From: an uncultured Candidatus Saccharibacteria bacterium
GTDB taxonomy: Bacteria > Patescibacteriota > Minisyncoccia > Minisyncoccales > RBG-13-42-11
DNA: 28,789 bases
Reading direction: 5' to 3'
Assembly (NCBI GenBank): GCA_964474185.1
Contig: CAYYRI010000001.1
Location: 1 to 28,789 of the forward strand
In this document: piece by piece, positions 2,629 through 22,012 of the stretch
Layout of the letters: each line of letters opens with the position of its first letter
Position numbering within the stretch: the first letter of the stretch is position 1
Notes under the pieces: model-generated
What the model was told of the DNA's origin: nothing
What the model saw: the letters and a program-made list of their open reading frames with translations, nothing else
The model's database searches: none
Translations under genes and position numbers: made by a program

Positions 2629-4791
2629 TTAGGGTTTGTCTCTCGCCTCTTTTAACGAGAGGTTAATTCTTCCTTGTTCGTCAATTGAAATCACTTTAAC
2701 GGGAATAATATCCCCGATTTTTACTATGTCTTCCACTTTATTGACTCGATAGTCAGCCAACTGGGAAATGTGAACCAGTCCGTCCTGGCCGGGTAAAATT
2801 TCGACGAAAGCGCCGAAATCCAGAATTCTTTGTACTTTGCCCTGGAATATTTCCCCCACTTTTACCTCTCTGGTGATATTTTTTATCCAGTCGGCGGCTT
2901 TTATTCCGGCTGTTTCTTTTTCAGCGGTGATGAAGATTCTCCCCGAATCTTCGATGTCGATTGAAACTCCGCACTCTTCGATTATTTCATTGATAATTTT
3001 CCCTCCGGGGCCGATCACCTCCCTGATTTTCTCGGGATTAATCTGCAGAATTATGATTCTCGGGGCGTAGGGTGAAAGTTCGGGCCTGGAGCTTGAAATA
3101 ACCTTTGACATTTCGTCCAGGATCTGAAGCCGGGCCCTTTTTCCCCGGGCAAGGGCTTCTTTTAAAATTTCTTCTCCGATTCCCTCGATTTTTACATCCA
3201 TCTGGATCGCGGTTATCCCGTCTTTTGTTCCGGCTATCTTGAAATCCATGTCTCCGTGATGATCTTCCGGTCCCTGTATATCGGTTAAAATTTTGTAATT
3301 GCCTTTGCCATCCTGCATCAATCCCAGAGCGATTCCGGCCGCCTGTTTCTTTATCGGCACTCCGGCATCCATCAAAGCCAAAATTGAACTGGAAACCGAA
3401 GCCATTGAAGTGGAGCCGTTGGATGAAAGAATTTCAGTGACAATTCTCATCGTGTAAGGAAATTCATCAAAACTCGGAATGAGGGGGAACAAAGCTTTTT
3501 CCGCCAGCATGCCGTGGCCGATTTCCCGCCTGCCCGGCCCCCTTAAGGGTTTTATCTCTCCGGAAGAATAGGGCGGAAAATTGTAGTGATGCATAAAACG
3601 TTTTTTCCCGGTAACTTCCATGCCTTCCAGCAGTTTTACGTCGCTCGGCGCTCCCAAAGTTAAAATCGAAAGAGCATGGGTGATGCCCCGGCAAAATAAA
3701 CCCGAGCCGTGAGTTCTCGGCAGTAATCCCACCTCAACCTGGATTTTTCTTATTTCATCGATTTTCCTGCCGTCGGGTCTTTTTTCCGAAGCGATCGCGT
3801 TTTTATGGACCAATCTGTTGATTTCTTCCTCGAAAATCCGAGCCGCAGCGGAGGATGAAGAAGAGGATTTATTCTCTTCGCCCATACTGGCAGGATATTT
3901 CCTCCGGATATGATAAATCAGCTCGTCTTTAAGTTGATTTACATCGTCCATCCTTTCTGCTTTGTCTTTCTGATAAAGGGCATTTTCCAGCCTGTCCCCC
4001 AGAAAATCCTTGATTTCTTTTTCCAATTCCGGATCTTGCGGAGGCTCGTTGATTTTAATTTTTTCTTTCCCGACTTTTTCGGCAATTTCTTTTTGGAAAT
4101 CGATCAGTTTTTTTAAATAAGGCTTGGCCGATTCTATCGCCTCCACGACCACGCTTTCCTCGATTTCATCTCCTTCGAGCTCCATCATACTGATCAAAAC
4201 ATCGTCATTATCTTTGTTCCCTAAAAATCGCGCGGATGGGGAAGACATCCCCGTTACGGCAAAATCCAAATTGCTTTTTTCCCTTTCGGCATAGGTAGGA
4301 TTCAAGATAAATTTTTCTTCTCCTTTTCCGATTCTCAAAGCGGCTATGGGGCCTGACCAGGGAATGTCGGATATGGAGAGCGCAAGAGAGGCCGCAATCA
4401 ATCCTATGATATCCGGGTCGTTTTCTCCATCCCAGGAAAGGCAGGTGACAACCACCTGAACTTCTCTTTTTAAATTCTGGGGAAAGCAGGGCCTGATTGC
4501 TCTGTCGATGAATCGGGAAGTCAAAATAGCCTCATCCGAAGGCCGACTTTCCCTTCTTAAGTACCTGGAACCTAATATTTTTCCGGCGGCATAAAATCTT
4601 TCCTCATAATCAACGGTTAAAGGGAAAAAACCCGCTCCCTCAGATTCGTTTTTAGACATTACCGCCGTAGCCAAAACCAGAGTGTCTCCGTATTGAACCA
4701 AAACATTGCCCGACGCTTGTTCGGCCAGATTCCTGATTTCCACTTTAAGTTCTTTTCCTCCGATTTCTAGTTTGAAAGTTTCCTTGATCAT
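2629..4791 (-). CDS. pnp: Polyribonucleotide nucleotidyltransferase (PNPase)
   Basis: 720 aa. Two RNase PH-like halves (FPLTVDYEERFYAAGKI; GLLPRTHGSGLF), KH (GPGGKIINEIIEE) and S1 (VGEIFQGKVQRILDFGAFVE) domains. Confidence 0.97.
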   Translation of the reverse strand: MIKETFKLEIGGKELKVEIRNLAEQASGNVLVQYGDTLVLATAVMSKNESEGAGFFPLTVDYEERFYAAGKILGSRYLRRESRPSDEAILTSRFIDRAIRPCFPQNLKREVQVVVTCLSWDGENDPDIIGLIAASLALSISDIPWSGPIAALRIGKGEEKFILNPTYAEREKSNLDFAVTGMSSPSARFLGNKDNDDVLISMMELEGDEIEESVVVEAIESAKPYLKKLIDFQKEIAEKVGKEKIKINEPPQDPELEKEIKDFLGDRLENALYQKDKAERMDDVNQLKDELIYHIRRKYPASMGEENKSSSSSSAAARIFEEEINRLVHKNAIASEKRPDGRKIDEIRKIQVEVGLLPRTHGSGLFCRGITHALSILTLGAPSDVKLLEGMEVTGKKRFMHHYNFPPYSSGEIKPLRGPGRREIGHGMLAEKALFPLIPSFDEFPYTMRIVTEILSSNGSTSMASVSSSILALMDAGVPIKKQAAGIALGLMQDGKGNYKILTDIQGPEDHHGDMDFKIAGTKDGITAIQMDVKIEGIGEEILKEALARGKRARLQILDEMSKVISSSRPELSPYAPRIIILQINPEKIREVIGPGGKIINEIIEECGVSIDIEDSGRIFITAEKETAGIKAADWIKNITREVKVGEIFQGKVQRILDFGAFVEILPGQDGLVHISQLADYRVNKVEDIVKIGDIIPVKVISIDEQGRINLSLKEARDKP
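3837..3882 (-). repeat. GC-rich hairpin repeat inserted in phase within pnp (encodes GEENKSSSSSSAAARIF)
   Basis: Minus strand GGCGAAGAGAATAAATCCTCTTCTTCATCCTCCGCTGCGGCTCGGA closely matches 10021-10066, 10258-10303 and 20401-20446. Confidence 0.75.
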
Positions 4792-5899: not shown

Positions 5900-6385
5900 C
5901 TATTGGATCGGACATTTCCCCGTGAATTCCCACCAATTTCCCAGACCCGTCCACTCTTGAATGCCCATGAAACCAAGGAGGGTGTTCAGAAGAATCCAAG
6001 CTATAAAAATAATCACTATGCCGATAATCGCCGCCGTAATCACTGATTTTGCCCGGTTCAAACTTTGGGGATTAATGCCGGCGGTTAAAAGATATAATCC
6101 GCCGATGATCAGCATTAGACCGCCGATTACGGGAGTGAGACAGGTCAGAATGAAATTAATGATATTGGTGATAAGGACAAAAATATGGCAGAATTGGCAA
6201 GCTGGCTGTTCCTGTCCTCCGCAGGGGACAATCGGTCCGCCGCAGTCCGCCAGAACCTGATTAGCCGGAAATAAAAAAAATCCGATTAGAATTCCTGACA
6301 ATATTAAATTTGGAAATTGGAATCTGGAAGCGAAGAGCGTTTGCTTTTCTTTATTTCGTTGCGACTCGATAATTGAAAATTTCAT
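5900..6385 (-). CDS. VirB2/TrbC-like (T4SS-pilin-like) small membrane protein of the type common in CPR genomes
   Basis: Signal/TM segment, then Cys motif CGGPIVPCGG...ACQFCHIFVLITNIINF, then two hydrophobic helices (PVIGGLMLIIGGLYLLTAG...AAIIGIVIIFIAWILLN). Start taken at MKFSII (6385); the upstream ATG at 6400 lies in a hairpin. Confidence 0.6.
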   Translation of the reverse strand: MKFSIIESQRNKEKQTLFASRFQFPNLILSGILIGFFLFPANQVLADCGGPIVPCGGQEQPACQFCHIFVLITNIINFILTCLTPVIGGLMLIIGGLYLLTAGINPQSLNRAKSVITAAIIGIVIIFIAWILLNTLLGFMGIQEWTGLGNWWEFTGKCPIQ

Positions 6386-6415: not shown

Positions 6416-6460
6416 GCGAAGTCGAAGAAGAGGAGAAAATCCTCTTCGCCTGCTGTGCCC
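6416..6460 (+). repeat. Diverged copy of the GTCGAAGAG-hairpin repeat family
   Basis: GCGAAGTCGAAGAAGAGGAGAAAATCCTCTTCGCCTGCTGTGCC contains the hairpin GAAGAGGA/TCCTCTTC and a related tail. Confidence 0.5.
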
Positions 6461-8524: not shown

Positions 8525-11286
8525 TGAATTCAATGCCTTTTCTCTGGATAATTTTTAGTTATTTTTTAGGGTCTATTCCCTTCGGTTATTTAATCGGCCG
8601 TTTATCGGGAAAAAATGTTTTAGAAGTTGGCTGGAGAAAAACTTCGGGCAGCAATGTTTTTAAAAACGTAGGAAAATGGCAGGGAGTTTTGACTGCAATT
8701 TTAGATGTTTCCAAAGGATATGCGGCAGTTTACGGAGCCAGGACGCTGGGCCTATCTTCGGAAGTTCAGGTTCTTTCCGGGGTGGCGGCGGTTACGGGCC
8801 ATAATTGGTCTCTGTTTTTGAAATTTGCCGGAGGGCGGGGCATCGGCACCTTTGCCGGCGCCTTTTTGGCTTTGTCTCCCCAAATTCTTCTCTTTTCCAT
8901 CATCCCCCTTATTATTTTAGCCATTGTTTGGAATGCCGCAATCGGGACCATTTTATTTTTATTCACTGCAATTTTCCTTTCCCGGTATCTTAATCAATTT
9001 GGGACGGCGGGAGTTTTTACAACTTTGTCCTTAGTCCCCATTTTCATTAAAAGATTAAGCCCGATCGAAGAAATCAAAGAATCTCAGAGAAAAGCGCAAT
9101 TATTAAGAAATCGTCTTATTTTTGACGATGACGTGGCTTTGTTGGAGTTGAGAATCAAAAGAATTTTCCAAAAAACAAAAGGCAGCCACGGTTTATTTAT
9201 GAAAATAATGAAACCCGTTACCGCTCCTTTCTGGCTGCCCCCGAAAGTCGGCTGGCAGGTGGCGAAATTCGGGGTAAAGATGGCTAAAAAACCGATAGGC
9301 AAATTTATTTTGAAACCTCAGGAAAAAGTCGTTAACGAAATTAAAACAGAGGACTTTAAAAAAATGATGGTCGCCGCCGCCAAAAAAATCGTTGTGCATC
9401 AGGAGGAAATCAACAAAATAAACGTTTTCCCCGTGGCGGACAAAGATACTGGTTATAATTTGGCGGCTACTTTATTGGGGATTGAGGGAACAATCTCCCA
9501 AAGAAATTACCAAACCCTTAGAGAGTTGACCAAAGACATCAAAGAGGCGGCGATGATTAACGCCAGGGGAAACGCCGGAATGATTTACACGGGTTATCTG
9601 ATTGAAGTTCTGGACAGAGTGAAACATTTGGAAACGATAGATGCCTTTCATTTGGCTCTGGCGATGCGAAGAGGGATAAAAGCGGCAAGATCCTCCATTG
9701 CGGAACCCGTGGAAGGAACGATTTTGGACACGGTAAAAGCCGCCGGAGAAAGAGCTTATGAAGTCGCCAAATTTAAAGATCCCGCCCTCGGCAAACAGGA
9801 AAAAAACATAATTAAAATGCTGGAGGAAGCTCAGAAGAGCTCGGATATCGCCCTTAAAGAAACGAAAGAGAAATTACAAGTTTTGAAGGAAAACGACGTG
9901 GTTGATGCCGGGGCCCTGGGTTTCGTCAAAATCTTAGAGGCCTGGGTTGAAAGCCTGAAGGGAGTTGAAGTAGCCAGCCCCATTTTTTCGCCGGAAACAG
10001 AAGAGAAGCTAAAATACAGAGTCGAAGAGGATAAATCCTCTTCTTCACCCTTCGCTGCGGCTCGGGTATACGAAGTGGTGCTGAGTTTCAGAAAAAATAA
10101 AGAAATCAGCGCAGAAGATTTAAAAAATGAATTATCTTCTTTGGGCGACAGTTTGGAGATTCTGGAACTGGAAGACAAAATCAAACTTCATATTCATACG
10201 AACGAGCCGGAGCTTGTTCGAGAAAAATTCAGGCACTTGCCGGAGTTTGAATCAAGGGTCGAAGAGCTTTTATGCTCTTCTTCACCCTTCGCTGCGGCTC
10301 GGGCGATTGAAGACATGGAACATCCGGGCTTGGCAGGCGATGAATCTAAAGATTCATCTTCACCTACCCGAGCGCAGCGAAGGGTGGAAAAGAACAGAAT
10401 GTTCTTTGATTCGCCTCGCCGCGCGCTCGGCTTGGTGGTTGATGAAGTTGCCGATTTACCGAAAGAATTTTTAGAAAAATATAATATTGAAGAAGTGCCT
10501 TTTACGACCAGGTTTCCGGACGGAGAATTCATCACTTCAAAAGAAGATATTTATCAGAAAATGAAAGAAGCTTTGGCAACCGGGCGCCATTTGCCCACTA
10601 CTGCCGCCCCTTCGTTCAAAAATTTCCTTTCGGTTTATCAAAACGCTCTGAAAAATTTTGAAAAAATTTTGGTGATCACCATTTCTTCGAAGCTTTCCGG
10701 CGCTTACAGTTCGGCCAGAATCGCCCGTTCCGTTTTCAAAAAACCGGAAAAGCTTGATATCTTCGTTTTCGACTGTTTTACCGCCGAAGTCGGCGAAGGT
10801 CTGGCCGCGATAAAAACGCAGGAATTGATTTCCCAGGGCAAAACGACCGAAGAGATTGTGGAAAAACTGAAAGAATTTTGTCCAAAGATTACTTTATTGG
10901 CCTGCATAGACGATTTTAAATACGTAGTCAGGGGAGGAAGAGTCAGATTGCCAAAAATATTCATTGGACCTACCTCGTTCATCCAGAAATTGGGAATCAG
11001 GTTTTTGGTGGGTTTGAAAAACGGAAAGGTCAAATTCTTCGGGGCGAGTTTGGGGAAAGACAAGGCGAGAATCCTGGCCGAAGAGATTGATCTGCAAAGA
11101 CGAGGCGGAGCTATCCAGGTGGCCATAGCCCACGCCGATAATTTGAAAGAAGCCCAGAAACTTAAAACCGAACTGGAAAAAAGGCCCCAAATAAAAGTTT
11201 TATACATTTCTTCGGTATCGCCGGTGGTGGCAACCCATACGGGGCCCGGGGCGCTTCTCGCGGCCTTTCATCCGATTGACAAATAA
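8524..11286 (+). CDS. plsY: Single ORF fusing a PlsY-like acyl-phosphate:G3P acyltransferase, a Dak2/DhaL (FakA-like) kinase module and a DegV (FakB-like) fatty-acid-binding domain
   Basis: PlsY part, residues 1 to about 195: LGSIPFGYLIG, DVSKGY, GHNWSLFLKFAGGRGIGT, multiple TM helices. Dak2 part, about 270-480: INVFPVADKDTGYNLAAT. Central part: LGDSLEILELEDKIKLHIHTNEP. DegV part, about 637-920: VVDEVADLPKEFLEKYNIEEVPF...TTAAPSFKNFL...ITISSKLSGAYSSA. No stop codon anywhere in 920 codons. Confidence 0.85.
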   Translation: MNSMPFLWIIFSYFLGSIPFGYLIGRLSGKNVLEVGWRKTSGSNVFKNVGKWQGVLTAILDVSKGYAAVYGARTLGLSSEVQVLSGVAAVTGHNWSLFLKFAGGRGIGTFAGAFLALSPQILLFSIIPLIILAIVWNAAIGTILFLFTAIFLSRYLNQFGTAGVFTTLSLVPIFIKRLSPIEEIKESQRKAQLLRNRLIFDDDVALLELRIKRIFQKTKGSHGLFMKIMKPVTAPFWLPPKVGWQVAKFGVKMAKKPIGKFILKPQEKVVNEIKTEDFKKMMVAAAKKIVVHQEEINKINVFPVADKDTGYNLAATLLGIEGTISQRNYQTLRELTKDIKEAAMINARGNAGMIYTGYLIEVLDRVKHLETIDAFHLALAMRRGIKAARSSIAEPVEGTILDTVKAAGERAYEVAKFKDPALGKQEKNIIKMLEEAQKSSDIALKETKEKLQVLKENDVVDAGALGFVKILEAWVESLKGVEVASPIFSPETEEKLKYRVEEDKSSSSPFAAARVYEVVLSFRKNKEISAEDLKNELSSLGDSLEILELEDKIKLHIHTNEPELVREKFRHLPEFESRVEELLCSSSPFAAARAIEDMEHPGLAGDESKDSSSPTRAQRRVEKNRMFFDSPRRALGLVVDEVADLPKEFLEKYNIEEVPFTTRFPDGEFITSKEDIYQKMKEALATGRHLPTTAAPSFKNFLSVYQNALKNFEKILVITISSKLSGAYSSARIARSVFKKPEKLDIFVFDCFTAEVGEGLAAIKTQELISQGKTTEEIVEKLKEFCPKITLLACIDDFKYVVRGGRVRLPKIFIGPTSFIQKLGIRFLVGLKNGKVKFFGASLGKDKARILAEEIDLQRRGGAIQVAIAHADNLKEAQKLKTELEKRPQIKVLYISSVSPVVATHTGPGALLAAFHPIDK
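10021..10075 (+). repeat. GC-rich hairpin repeat, in phase inside the fusion ORF (encodes VEEDKSSSSPFAAARVYE)
   Basis: GTCGAAGAGGATAAATCCTCTTCTTCACCCTTCGCTGCGGCTCGGGT contains the hairpin GAAGAGGA-TAAA-TCCTCTTC. About 46 of 52 nt are identical to the intergenic copy at 20401-20452. Confidence 0.8.
10258..10413 (+). repeat. Cluster of three hairpin-repeat modules (one direct, one hairpin-only, one inverted) forming the linker before the DegV domain
   Basis: 10258-10303: GTCGAAGAGCTTTTATGCTCTTCTTCACCCTTCGCTGCGGCTCGGG. 10339-10358: GATGAATCTAAAGATTCATC. 10366-10413: ACCCGAGCGCAGCGAAGGGTGGAAAAGAACAGAATGTTCTTTGATTCG, the reverse complement of the family consensus with a different but still paired hairpin. 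Confidence 0.75.
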
Positions 11287-11350
11287 GTTTTTTTTGTTAG
11301 AATTAAATCAGTCCGTGAAAATTGCGGACACTTTTATTAACAAATAACAA

Positions 11351-11463
11351 CCCATATCGGAGATGGGTCGGAAGAACCCTCTGGTTCTTCCGTATAGGAA
11401 AACAGCCGGGCTTTGCCCGCGTTAGAAACCGAGGGTTTCTAAAGAGCGAGCGTAAGCGAGCGA
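11351..11463 (+). repeat. About 110-nt structured repeat, copy 1 (inverted copy at 21880-21984)
   Basis: CCCATATCGGAGATGGGTCGGAAGAACCCTCTGGTTCTTCCGTATAGGAAAA ... AAACCGAGGGTTTCTAAAGAGCGAGCGTAAGCGAGCG. The core of about 48 nt is nearly identical to the reverse complement of 21937-21984. Confidence 0.7.
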
Positions 11464-11481: not shown

Positions 11482-13689
11482 ATGGACATAAAAAATTTTG
11501 CATCGGCCATCGCCCAAATTGCCGAAGAAAAAGGCATTTCAGCGGAAAAGGTTTTGGAAACCATTGAGATGGCCATCGCCGCCGCTTACAAAAAGGATTA
11601 CGGCAAAAAAGGCCAAATAATCAAAGCCAAGCTTGATTCGGAATCTGGCGATGTTAAGTTTTGGCAGGTGAAATTGGCGGTTGCAAAATCAATGATTTAT
11701 TCCGAAGAAGAATTGAAAAAGCTCGCGGAGAAAGCCGCAATTTCTCAAAGGCCAGTTTCCGTCGAGAATGAATTCTCGGAAGAAGAAATCAAAGGCGAAA
11801 AGAAAGTTCGTTTTAACCCCGAGAAGCATATTATGCTCGAGGACGCAAAAAAGATAAAACCGAAAATAAAAGCGGGCGAAGAGTTTGAAACGCCTTTGGA
11901 ACCTCAGAAAGATTACGGAAGAATTGCCGCCCAGACGGCAAAACAAGTAATTCTCCAGCGAATCAGGGAAGCGGAAAAAGAAAGCATATTCTCTGAATAT
12001 AAATCCAAGGAAGGAGAAATAATTTCCGGTATCGTCCAGAGGATCGAGGGCAGAAACGTCTTTTTGGACATAGGCAAGACATTGGGCGTTTTGCCGAGAG
12101 AAGAGCAGGTTATGGGAGAATTTTACCGCCCCGGCCAGCGGCTTAAAGCATACGTTTTGAAAGTTGATGAAACCCCTAAGGGCCCAATAATTTTTTTATC
12201 AAGAGCTTATCCAAAATTGATTTCAAAGCTTTTTGAATTAGAGGTGCCTGAAATTTCTTCCGGCCAGGTCCAGATAAAATCAATTGCCAGAGAGGCTGGT
12301 TCGAGGTCGAAAATTGCGGTGGCGACCGAAGCGGATGGAGTAGATCCGATAGGAAGCTGTTTTCCGGGCAGAACTTTAATTCTAATGGAGGATTTCAGTT
12401 ATAAACCCATTGTTCAACTATCAAAAGGAGAAGTAGTTTTCACTCATTTAGGGAACCGAGAAATAATCTCAAAAACTTTTAAAAGGATATGGAATGGAAC
12501 TACTTTAAAATTTGAAGTTTTTGGAATTCACCAGAATTTAGAAGTTACTAAAGAACATCCGTTGCTTTTTACCCTTGGCTACGACCAAAAAAAAGAATTT
12601 AAAGAAGCTTCGAGAATTAAAAAAGGCTATTTAGCAATCCCTACTTTAGAAAATGTAGTATTTGATAAAACTATTTATCATTTCGAAAAAGAAAAAGATT
12701 TTTTATGGGTTTTGGGAATATATTTAGCTGAGGGTTCTTTGGATCGCGCGGAGGTTAATTTCACCCTCTCTAAACAAGAAAAAGATAAAGCATTAAAGAT
12801 AAAAGATATAATGGAAAAATATGGGGGCAAGGTTTATATTAGAGAATCTAACTGTCGCCCTTCAGTTTTAGATATTAAATTATTTGGAGAATATTGGAGA
12901 AAAATATTCAAAGAATTGGGCGGAGAGTATTGCGATAGAAAAAAAATAAATTCAAGATTAATGTTTTTAAGCCCAAAATTACAACTCGAAATTTTCAAAG
13001 GGTGGAAAGATGGAGATGGTTATTTTGATAAGAAAAGAAACCGAACTATAATAGTTACAACCTCAGAGAATCTTCTATGGCAGATGTATCATATTTTACT
13101 TAGAAATAAAATTAGAGCCAATATGCAAAAACGAAAAGACCGAGAGGGTCGAAAAGATGCTTATCAATTGGAAATCGCCAATAATAAGACGAGAGATTAT
13201 CGGGGATTTTTTCGAGGTGATTATTATTTTTCACGCATCAGAAAAATAGAAAGAGGACCTTGTTCTTCGGGCCGCCAGGTTTACAACCTTGAGGTAGGGG
13301 ATGATAATTCCTATATAGCTTACTCAGTGGCAGCACATAATTGTGTCGGCCAAAAAGGAACGAGAGTAATGGCCGTGATAAACGAACTGGGCGGAGAAAA
13401 AATCGATATTATCGAATATTCGCCAGAACCCGAAAGGTATATTGCCAACGCCTTATCCCCCGCCAAAGTTTTAGAAGTAAAAATTCTGCCGAAAAATAAA
13501 GCCCAGGCCGTTGTTCCCGAAGACCAATTGTCTTTGGCCATCGGCAAAGACGGCCAAAACGTCAGATTAGCGGCGAAATTAACGGGCTGGAAAATAGACG
13601 TTAAGGGTCCGGAAGAGGAAAAAAAACAAGAAGTCGAAGAAACAAAAAAAATAAAAAAACCAAGAAAAAAACCCAAAAATAAAATATGA
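11482..13689 (+). CDS. nusA: Transcription termination/antitermination factor NusA, interrupted by an intein
   Basis: N-terminal domain, S1 ([21 protein letters not shown]) and KH1/KH2 domains. The extein junction DPIGS|C...HN|[24 protein letters not shown] restores the conserved DP(V/I)G(A/S)CVG motif. Lys-rich C-terminal tail. Confidence 0.95.
12358..13341 (+). mobile_element. Intein (328 aa) with LAGLIDADG homing-endonuclease domain inside nusA
   Basis: Cys1 ([13 protein letters not shown]), block B TKEHP, LAGLIDADG motifs LGIYLAEGS and [11 protein letters not shown], block [23 protein letters not shown] followed by +1 Cys. In frame (residues 293-620). Visibly more AT/Lys-rich than the flanking nusA sequence. 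Confidence 0.9.
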
Positions 13690-18320: not shown

Positions 18321-18454
18321 CCCCGTTAGAAGTTTGTCTTTACGCGATAAAGATAGCCAATTTCAGACGATCCTATTAAATTTCATTGATAGGTTTGTTT
18401 GTTCAGCGCAGAAAAATTTTATTGAAATTTTTCTGTCCAAGACTTCTAACGGGG
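18321..18454 (+). repeat. About 134-nt element with perfect 13-bp terminal inverted repeats, copy B (family shared with 1493-1622)
   Basis: CCCCGTTAGAAGT (18321-18333) pairs with ACTTCTAACGGGG (18442-18454). Internal features are AATTTCAGAC and the hairpin CAGAAAAATTTTATTGAAATTTTTCTG. It ends 12 nt before the rny ATG. Confidence 0.75.
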
Positions 18455-20134: not shown

Positions 20135-20354
20135 TCGGGGCACTGGGATTCGAACCCAGACTAAATCCTCCCACCCCAGTACTAAAAATTAACTTTCGGG
20201 GTATCCAGATTTGAACTGGAACTAAATCCTCCCAAAGGACTCGTGCTACCATTACACCATACCCCGTTAATTTTAGTACGGGGCAAGAAGGACTCGCCTG
20301 CCCCGTAGTGAGCTTCGCTCTACTACCGGGGTGCTACCGTTGCACTATGCCCCG
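20135..20354 (-). other. Interrupted (split, intron-containing or decayed) tRNA-Pro-like gene enclosing tRNA-Pro(UGG)
   Basis: The 5' part (20354-20331) is CGGGGCA-TA-GTGC-AACGGTA-GCAC. The 3' part (20172-20135) is GGGA-GGATT-TAGT-CTGGG-TTCGAAT-CCCAG-TGCCCCG-A. The acceptor strands are perfectly complementary. See the first finding for details. Confidence 0.55.
20196..20266 (-). tRNA. tRNA-Pro (anticodon UGG)
   Basis: 71 nt. Acceptor CGGGGTA/TACCCCG, D arm GTGT-AATGGTA-GCAC, anticodon stem AGTCC/GGATT with loop TT-TGG-GA, T arm TCCAG-TTCAAAT-CTGGA, discriminator A. CCA is not encoded. Confidence 0.9.
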
Positions 20355-20363
20355 TTCGCGCTT

Positions 20364-20392: not shown

Positions 20393-20400
20393 TATTTTAA

Positions 20401-20452
20401 GCGAAGAGGATAAATCCTCTTCTTTACCTTTCGTTGCGGCTCGGGTGTATGA
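20401..20452 (+). repeat. Intergenic copy of the GTCGAAGAG-hairpin repeat family
   Basis: GCGAAGAGGATAAATCCTCTTCTTTACCTTTCGTTGCGGCTCGGGTGTATGA is near-identical to the coding copy at 10021-10075. Confidence 0.75.
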
Positions 20453-20507
20453 TATACTAAATCAATGAATTCCATTCATTTCATTTCTCACTAATGTTCA
20501 AAAATCA

Positions 20508-21879: not shown

Positions 21880-21984
21880 CTTTCGGGCGAGCGCGCTAAC
21901 GCCGCTCCTTAACAACCCTCGGTTTTTAATATTTTTCCTACACGGAAGAACCGGAGGGTTCTTCCGACCCATCTCCAATGCGGG
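21880..21984 (-). repeat. About 105-nt structured repeat, copy 2 (inverted relative to 11351-11463)
   Basis: The reverse complement reads CCCGCATTGGAGATGGGTCGGAAGAACCCTCCGGTTCTTCCGTGTAGGAAAA...AAACCGAGGGTTGTTAAGGAGCGGCGTTAGCGCGCTCGCC. Confidence 0.7.
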
Positions 21985-22012
21985 ATGTTAATTATAAAGT
22001 ACTTATAAAAAT

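Follow-up and report, generated by a model that had tools for sequence, protein, structure and literature searches.

Miniature double-hairpin repeats of Patescibacteria, probably mobile, in a PlsY-FakA-DegV fusion gene and other coding regions

We describe here a short repeated element in a 28,789-nucleotide (nt) stretch of DNA (the window) from an uncultured Candidatus Saccharibacteria bacterium (GenBank assembly GCA_964474185.1, contig CAYYRI010000001.1, positions 1 to 28,789), where copies lie inside a gene encoding a PlsY-FakA-DegV fusion protein, inside pnp, and next to a tRNA cluster. The unit is 48 nt long, or 46-47 nt in its sub-families, with the consensus GGCGAAGAGGATAAATCCTCTTCTTCACCCTTCGCTGCGGCTCGGGTA; together with its flanks it reads TA/GGCGAAGAGGATAAATCCTCTTCTTCACCCTTCGCTGCGGCTCGGGTA/nnnGAAGAA (slashes mark junctions), the left boundary being sharp. 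These repeats probably represent a family of miniature, non-autonomous, selfish mobile DNA elements of Patescibacteria. In-frame selfish repeats have previously been treated as a peculiarity of Rickettsia, and no prior description of the element in Patescibacteria was found in the literature.

The window contains four full copies, one inverted 46-nt copy and one 5′ half copy (Table 1). The 21-mer tail CACCCTTCGCTGCGGCTCGGG has four matches in the window with at most three mismatches, as compared with none in 100 shuffles. A repeat finder joins 10023-10073, 10260-10310 and 20402-20452, with an inverted partner at 3830-3883 within pnp, and a profile made from copies outside the window matches the full copies at 10020-10075(+), 10258-10313(+), 20400-20453(+) and 3883-3827(-) with E-values of 5e-21 to 1e-16. 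An earlier reading made from the letters of the window (the sequence-only reading) had reported four hairpin modules in the fusion gene, and all four were found where it had placed them. Its 46-nt repeat at 10021 and 10258 exists, but the real boundaries are those of a 48-nt unit. The third module had been taken as a hairpin-only unit, and is instead positions 1-29 of another sense copy, matched by the profile at 10335-10364 (nhmmer E-value 0.003) and by a covariance model at model positions 6-31 (E-value 8.9e-5). The fourth was correctly recognized as inverted and as having its own stem (profile match 10406-10357, E-value 3e-9), and the half copy directly abuts it (10364/10365). This arrangement looks like a nested insertion of one copy within another, and the letters just downstream are a possible, although uncertain, 3′ remainder of the interrupted sense copy. 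The same pairing of half and inverted copies is present at loci L145, L147 and L134, and the half unit occurs alone in homologue P0010, as GDESKDSS. Single-strand folding predicts hairpin 1 for every copy in the window, and the three sense coding copies, including that in pnp, use one reading frame, as had been claimed. Two segments in the spacer before tRNA-Arg, 6330-6376 (+) and 6424-6451 (-), give sub-significant profile matches (E-values 0.01-0.06) and may be decayed copies.

Table 1. Copies of the element in the window and associated features (aa, amino acids; AF2, AlphaFold 2)
Feature	Coordinates	Strand	Evidence
Host gene, PlsY-Dak2(FakA N)-FakA_M-DegV fusion, 920 aa	8524..11286	+	Pfam, homologues, alignment, AF2 model
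Full 48-nt copy, site 1, translated VEEDKSSSSPFAAARV, fusion aa 500-515, between Dak2 and FakA_M	10021..10068	+	profile, covariance model
Native target motif TAC GAA GTG, adjoining the 3′ end of copy 1; GA = element positions 52-53	10069..10077	+	element-free orthologues
Full 48-nt copy, site 2, variant stem GAAGAGC/GCTCTTC, translated VEELLCSSSPFAAARA	10258..10305	+	profile, covariance model
5′ half (positions 1-29) of third sense copy, GGCGATGAATCTAAAGATTCATCTTCACC	10336..10364	+	nhmmer, covariance model
Inverted 46-nt copy, sub-family stem AAAGAAC/GTTCTTT, read through as PTRAQRRVEKNRMFFD	10365..10410	-	repeat finder, profile, covariance model
Candidate degenerate 3′ remainder of interrupted sense copy, CCTCGCCGCGCGCTCGGCTTG	10413..10437	+	reading of sequence
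Full 48-nt copy inside pnp, sense to gene, translated GEENKSSSSSSAAARI, aa 304-319	3835..3882	-	repeat finder, profile, covariance model
Full 48-nt intergenic copy adjoining tRNA cluster	20400..20447	+	repeat finder, profile, covariance model

When 185,579 species genomes were scanned with a strict 24-nt pattern, 24 loci matched, distributed over 14 assemblies that are all labelled Patescibacteria (Nealsonbacteria, Paceibacter, 'Saccharibacteria' metagenome-assembled genomes (MAGs) and 'Patescibacteria group'); there was no match elsewhere. One Nealsonbacteria MAG has eight copies and a closed 639-kb genome has three. The same pattern matches at least 120 metagenome stretches, so that further copies, which the sequence-only reading had proposed to look for, are present in the window and well outside of it. 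The census covers the matched loci and their flanks (1.08 Mb), in which 133 copies occupy unique contexts and a profile search gives 301 matches, including sub-families with other stems and tails. Copies occur in sense, antisense and intergenic positions; 107 of the 133 are inside open reading frames (ORFs) of at least 100 aa, and 26 are outside. More than 60 genes act as hosts, among them those for FabZ-NMO, YceG/MltG, PBP2, PheT, a P-type ATPase, an AddB/UvrD-type helicase-nuclease, UvrA and polynucleotide phosphorylase (PNPase), and identical 46-mers are present in very different genomes.

Each unit contains two adjacent hairpins, at positions 4-23 and 27-47. Hairpin 1 has an 8-bp A/G-rich stem (positions 4-11 pairing with 16-23) and a TAAA loop; in the G+C-rich hairpin 2 an outer ACCC/GGGT helix (27-30 with 44-47) closes an inner GC/GC helix (34-35 with 40-41) and a variable tetraloop. 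The G+C content is 56% for the element and 76% for its tail, against 42% for the window. We examined the three helices in 150 covariance-model matches (135 distinct sequences), and standard pairs fill 93.8% of the cells, compared with 83.9% in shuffles and 43-59% when the partners are slid; both sides of a pair are changed in 162 cells where 37.5 ± 4.6 are expected. The eight stem pairs tested are paired in 96% of cells, and two-sided changes occur at five of the eight pairs of the hairpin-1 stem, for example from G-C to A-T in 46 cells. Hairpin 2 provides an independent test because only hairpin 1 guided the alignment, and the inner helix of hairpin 2 changes in some copies from GC/GC to AT/TA, the tetraloop varying freely. 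This hairpin came to light through the signal at positions 28/46 in a mutual-information scan of flank against interior, in which most other signals reflected short-stem variants that shift the register. Folding also predicts that the tail CTTCG pairs with the flank CGAAG, but this helix was rejected, as it is only partly paired across copies and does not covary. Changes on one side of a pair (wobble) are rare, 11 as against 142 two-sided ones, and this fits a DNA hairpin that can be used on either strand. The proposal that the stem varies while pairing is kept, and that the hairpin rather than the peptide is the conserved unit, agrees with these changes and with the coding properties: information at codon positions 1, 2 and 3 is about 1.10, 1.10 and 1.15 bits (at positions left free by the search pattern), without periodicity, and the copies include intergenic ones and 28 antisense ones among the 107 coding copies, which encode RAAAKGEEEDLSSS or other peptides.

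Hairpins could also be maintained because they serve the host in cis, as a pause site, a determinant of RNase action or stability, or a recombination signal. The compensatory change that preserves both hairpins, the occurrence of identical 46-mers in very different genomes and the persistence of copies within essential genes would all agree with such a role. However, sense and antisense copies are present in the proportions predicted by the target motif alone, with no additional transcription-strand bias; insertion polymorphism, tandem arrays and decayed copies are seen; and near-pure Watson-Crick stems suit DNA on either strand better than RNA made in one direction. The hairpins are also not terminator-like: no intrinsic terminator was predicted at any copy in 9800-10600, the stem being followed by TTCACCC and not by a T run, and in Rfam searches of the window only tRNAs reach the gathering score, with nothing above chance for the element and chance miRNA-precursor matches to a large inverted repeat below threshold. 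We therefore rejected a terminator or a known RNA family as its identity, and consider a host-beneficial cis element unlikely. Terminal inverted repeats are absent, the 5′ end GGCGAAGAGG and the reverse complement of the 3′ end TACCCGAGCC not being complementary ends.

The selfish-repeat interpretation is supported by presence and absence of copies among orthologues. At site 1 of the fusion protein the exact 16-aa insert, between LKYR and YEVV, is shared by the window protein with just three relatives, of at least 86% identity, and is missing from all 15 more distant homologues aligned (up to 78% identity); at the DNA level the empty site in element-free orthologues is TACAG(G)/TACGAAGTGG. The site-2 copy is shared by the window and L147/P0018 (74% identical) but not by L146, in which the empty site is GGGTT/GAAGACATGGA. 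Locus L146 has no copy in 13 kb of synteny with the window, and there the empty site for the intergenic copy at 20400 is TTGA/TATGATATAC. The insertion in pnp, which lies in a variable region of PNPase, is orthologous in the window, L008 and L145, the last with additional, partly inverted pieces at the same site; Paceibacter PNPase carries the element at a different site, and the insertions at these two sites are independent. Loci L021 and L114 differ by a clean 48-nt indel with a single mismatch in 193 flanking nt. Occupation of many unrelated genes and presence or absence among orthologues, including that of the SSSPFAAAR insert, agree with the comparison to the Rickettsia palindromic elements (RPEs) drawn by the sequence-only reading.

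In the right flank, position 53 is A in 130 of the 133 copies, and position 52 is a purine (G or A). Searching with joined flanks gave 17 candidate empty sites, of which about 15 are genuinely empty, and GA is present at +4/+5 in 16 of the 17; since the same bases stand in the empty sites, the flank motif is native. The insertion point is thus separated by 3 nt from a native GA(A)GA on its 3′ side, the target being nnnGA(A)(G)(A), often after TA, which precedes the insertion point in about 10-11 of the 17 sites. Comparison of positions i and i+48 within each copy reveals a correlation only for 0/48 (84 observed, 64.7 expected) and not for 1-13 with 49-61, and several filled and empty pairs have no duplicated TA. 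A classical target duplication is disfavoured, as 0/48 is the only signal and a TA-duplication model misfits the sequence, giving a stop codon at site 1. Because the flank resembles the copy's own 5′ end no more than the consensus predicts, any duplication appears to be limited to 1-2 nt, and the flank presumably reflects target preference rather than copied sequence.

The left junction of the unit, TA/GGCGAAGA, itself resembles the target. Among 21 close same-strand neighbours, 13 abut exactly (gap -3 to 0), and head-to-tail arrays of 2-4 units without spacer are present at L076 (4183-4322), L007 (250-360), L040, L064, L072 and L075, some such arrays being intergenic and of the 46-47-nt sub-family. 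Mimicry of the target by the element's 5′ end can account both for these abutting arrays and for nested clusters such as that at 10258-10413. Tandem arrays, together with a flank that resembles the element's 5′ end, could instead suggest that copies arise by local slippage or duplication, with gene conversion between GAAGA-rich sequences, and not by transposition. This is highly improbable, as the copies occupy over 60 unrelated genes spread across many contigs, with a fixed 3-nt offset from GA and sharp 48-nt boundaries, and the per-copy similarity of flank and 5′ end does not exceed that of the consensus.

Target choice is also sufficient to account for the reading frame. Expected frames were obtained by masking the element copies in long ORFs from these loci, placing a 48-nt unit 3 nt upstream of each GAAGA, and keeping just those four of the unit's six frames that have no stop; translations of inserts were read from the open frames. 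The observed fractions are 0.70 for frame s1 (73 copies, 0.67 expected), 0.20 for a3 (21 copies, 0.14 expected), 0.06 for s2 (6 copies, 0.10 expected) and 0.05 for a1 (5 copies, 0.10 expected), with a chi-square p of 0.09 against the GAAGA-phase expectation and of 3e-25 against equal use of the four frames. The bias is explained by a target motif made mostly of Glu/Asp codon runs, the 48-nt length and the loss of stop-containing frames, such that the in-phase property requires neither selection on the peptide nor a phase-aware mechanism. Selection on frame can be seen directly in copy lengths: copies whose length is a multiple of three number 133 coding and 29 non-coding, as against 15 coding and 23 non-coding for other lengths (Fisher p=4e-7), so that copies not a multiple of three are depleted from ORFs.

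The SSSPFAAAR frame accounts for about 68% of coding copies, and its Ser/Ala-rich peptide is located in linkers or loops, which might be taken to indicate that recombination has spread a useful protein module, for example a flexible linker or a sequence that is cleaved or modified. Such a module is largely refuted and has very little likelihood, since third codon positions show no less conservation than the other two, the antisense copies encode unrelated peptides, 26 copies lie outside ORFs, the phase of the target alone reproduces the frame bias, and the majority of orthologues lack the insert.

The host of the cluster in the window has the Pfam domains PlsY (G3P_acyltransf, residues 12-171), Dak2 (303-475), FakA-like_M (517-572) and DegV (636-911). 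Dak2, FakA_M and DegV are on one polypeptide in all 120 of the best homologues (P0001-P0120, down to 50% identity), and PlsY is also fused in at least 117 of these, so that PlsY, the N-terminal and middle domains of FakA and the FakB-like DegV form a single protein in essentially all close and distant Patescibacteria homologues. This fusion unites the whole route of exogenous fatty-acid activation and acyl transfer in one membrane-anchored protein, with DegV in place of the usual C-terminal domain of FakA. A typical homologue has 845-870 aa, and most lack the element. The native linker between FakA_M and DegV in element-free homologues is short, RV-EDME-x(7-10)-PLGLVVDE in the alignment, and in the L146 orthologue it is about 15 aa, RV-EDMESQMKKTEKKP-LGLVIDE; in the window the cluster enlarges it to about 62 aa. 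Together with the copy between Dak2 and FakA_M this makes the window protein about 55 aa longer. In the AlphaFold model (mean predicted local distance difference test score, pLDDT, 70) residues 482-514, which include the site-1 insert, and residues 581-632 score below 50 between confidently folded domains, placing the inserts in linkers, where the sequence-only reading had expected them. A further, different rearrangement is seen at the same linker hot spot in P0002 (87% identity), which has an additional stem-only unit GDEFKDSSSS with a duplicated PRQRLGLI segment around it.

Since element-free homologues carry the fusion with a short native linker, the fusion predates the element, and its two interdomain linkers were lengthened by the element and not created by it. 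The sequence-only reading had proposed the opposite, namely that insertion into an intergenic spacer allowed read-through between a FakA-like gene and a DegV gene and so fused them, with the cluster making up essentially the entire linker. Although the cluster at 10258-10413 does fill most of the present linker, this model is refuted by the shared fusion among homologues, most of them element-free, and by the syntenic L146, which has the fusion with its short native linker and no element; we give it almost no credence.

A mechanism consistent with these data would begin with insertion directly 5′ of nnnGA(A)(G)(A), a motif that is mostly in codon phase (GAA-GAA, Glu/Asp). With a length of 16 codons and four stop-free frames, copies landing in genes would usually survive, most being read as (G/V)EEDKSSSSPFAAAR(V) and fewer, from the other strand, as RAAAKGEEEDLSSS, and the insert peptides are predicted to form disordered loops. 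The element's own 5′ end would then be available as a target for further copies. Single-strand transposition by HUH enzymes in IS200/IS605, REP-RAYT and IS91 systems uses like cleavage sites at the element end and the target (PMC3201880, PMC5027513, PMC8266576), and a nick-site-defined mechanism of this type, in which one and the same cut, ↓nnnGAAGA, would mark the target as well as the element's left end and its right flank, is a tentative possibility. It is somewhat more doubtful still that the element is the smallest bacterial transposable unit known (46-48 nt), consisting of two hairpins and a nick motif and mobilised in trans by an HUH-type or other nuclease of Patescibacteria. If so, a nick motif in Glu/Asp phase and a length of 16 codons would pre-adapt it to colonise coding sequence, and linkers and loops of essential proteins would be undergoing continuing expansion in a phylum with minimal genomes.

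Several observations weigh against mobility, or against the proposed means of it. No gene recurs next to the copies in 1.1 Mb of flanks, and no Y1-transposase or IS200-like ORF was found among 3190 flank ORFs, using an approximate query sequence. An autonomous parent element was rejected, as the members of the inverted pairs in L076 and L057 are inside separate, ordinary genes and the flanks contain neither a recurrent gene cluster nor, with this query, an IS200-like ORF. Base pairing between guide and target as in IS608 was also rejected, since positions 26 (C/T) and 52 (G/A) do not covary (p=0.65) and four copies with C32 retain A53. A phage vector was dismissed because the strict pattern has no match among 2.9 million viral contigs. 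The PNPase gene of L147 was rejected as an empty site, the region being 21 nt shorter and not clean, and may contain a decayed copy; and the L021/L114 indel may reflect precise loss or strain recombination instead of a new insertion, loss being suggested by the decayed stem of the polymorphic L021 copy. The copies were sampled by a pattern that fixes most tail positions, so that conservation of the tail is partly set by the search. Finally, the element may benefit its host at the RNA or protein level.

The anatomy of the element is closest to that of the mitochondrial G+C clusters and double-hairpin elements (DHEs), and its behavior is like that of RPEs, but it is a member of neither group. 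The families RPE-1 to RPE-10 are about 100-150 bp and restricted to Rickettsia, according to the summary of Ogata et al. (2000, 2002) in PMC10969869. Both systems are hairpin-forming selfish repeats lying in frame in many unrelated housekeeping genes and translated as additional, tolerated peptide segments, and no transposase is known for either, in the case of RPEs as far as that summary goes (PMC10969869). The element is set apart from RPEs, as described there, by its size of 46-48 nt (16 aa), about three times smaller, its two small hairpins in place of one long palindrome, its defined target ↓nnnGAAGA and its Patescibacteria hosts. The yeast GC42 and Allomyces DHE units are likewise mobile, form hairpins, measure 40-50 nt and are rich in G+C within an A+T-rich genome (PMC4478555, and Paquin et al. 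2000 as cited there), and in the account of PMC4478555 mitochondrial G+C clusters share constrained stems, variable loops, a very short target, tandem or merged clusters and the lack of a known dedicated enzyme. These clusters are organellar and mostly intergenic, whereas the element is mostly inside genes; GC42 duplicates AG (PMC4478555), and any duplication by the element is at most 1-2 nt and unproven.

Similarities also extend to the repetitive extragenic palindromic (REP)/REPIN-RAYT and IS200/IS605 systems, with subterminal hairpins but no terminal inverted repeats and no clear target duplication (PMC3201880, PMC5027513, PMC8266576), and with a short conserved motif on one flank only and precise gain or loss. 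REPs are extragenic and tied to a RAYT gene, whereas the flanks of the element have no Y1 gene; the whole element is shorter than a single end of IS608 and shows no guide-target covariation; and its lack of terminal inverted repeats separates it from strict miniature inverted-repeat transposable elements. Mycobacterial interspersed repetitive units (MIRUs) are units of about 50 nt, often in tandem, lying between operon genes with open frames phased with their neighbours. The element resembles them in unit length, frequent tandems and open reading frames, but MIRUs are between genes and are not double hairpins, whereas the element is found inside genes.

A second and much smaller family of in-frame repeats would mean that mobile DNA can live within coding sequence in reduced genomes other than those of Rickettsia, where intergenic space is scarce. 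The phase of the target motif and the 16-codon length offer a simple, testable reason for in-phase insertion, and the motif gives a concrete nick sequence with which to look for the enzyme. Inserts of 16 aa inflate or perturb alignments, domain boundaries and protein-family statistics for proteins of the candidate phyla radiation, and could be used as strain-level markers.

Other repeats and elements are present in the window. The NusA gene at 11482-13689 (+), only 200 nt downstream of the fusion gene, encodes 735 aa as compared with 415-435 aa in syntenic relatives; an intein that carries a LAGLIDADG homing-endonuclease domain (Pfam Intein_splicing 316-620, LAGLIDADG_3 501-569) accounts for the additional residues and is a second, unrelated in-frame selfish element. 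An intergenic multi-hairpin repeat of about 110 nt occurs at 11337-11448 (+) and 21903-21998 (-), containing …GGAGATGGGTCGGAAGAACCCTCTGGTTCTTCCGT…AAACCGAGGGTTTCT…; pieces of it are present in at least 12 other Patescibacteria loci, it has no Rfam match, and it may represent a further mobile family or an RNA not yet described. A third, small repeat at 1577-1622 and 18409-18454, with a further occurrence in L083, consists of a hairpin CAGAAAAATTT…AAATTTTTCTG followed by CCAAGGACTTCTAACGGGG and is located at gene ends. Two tRNA-like stretches, 20135-20195 and approximately 20270-20356 (-), were called by neither ARAGORN nor Rfam and adjoin the element copy at 20400. One (repeat D9) copies the adjacent tRNA over its 3′ half, and the other has ends that resemble tRNA-Pro (repeat I20) and is possibly an interrupted or intron-bearing tRNA.

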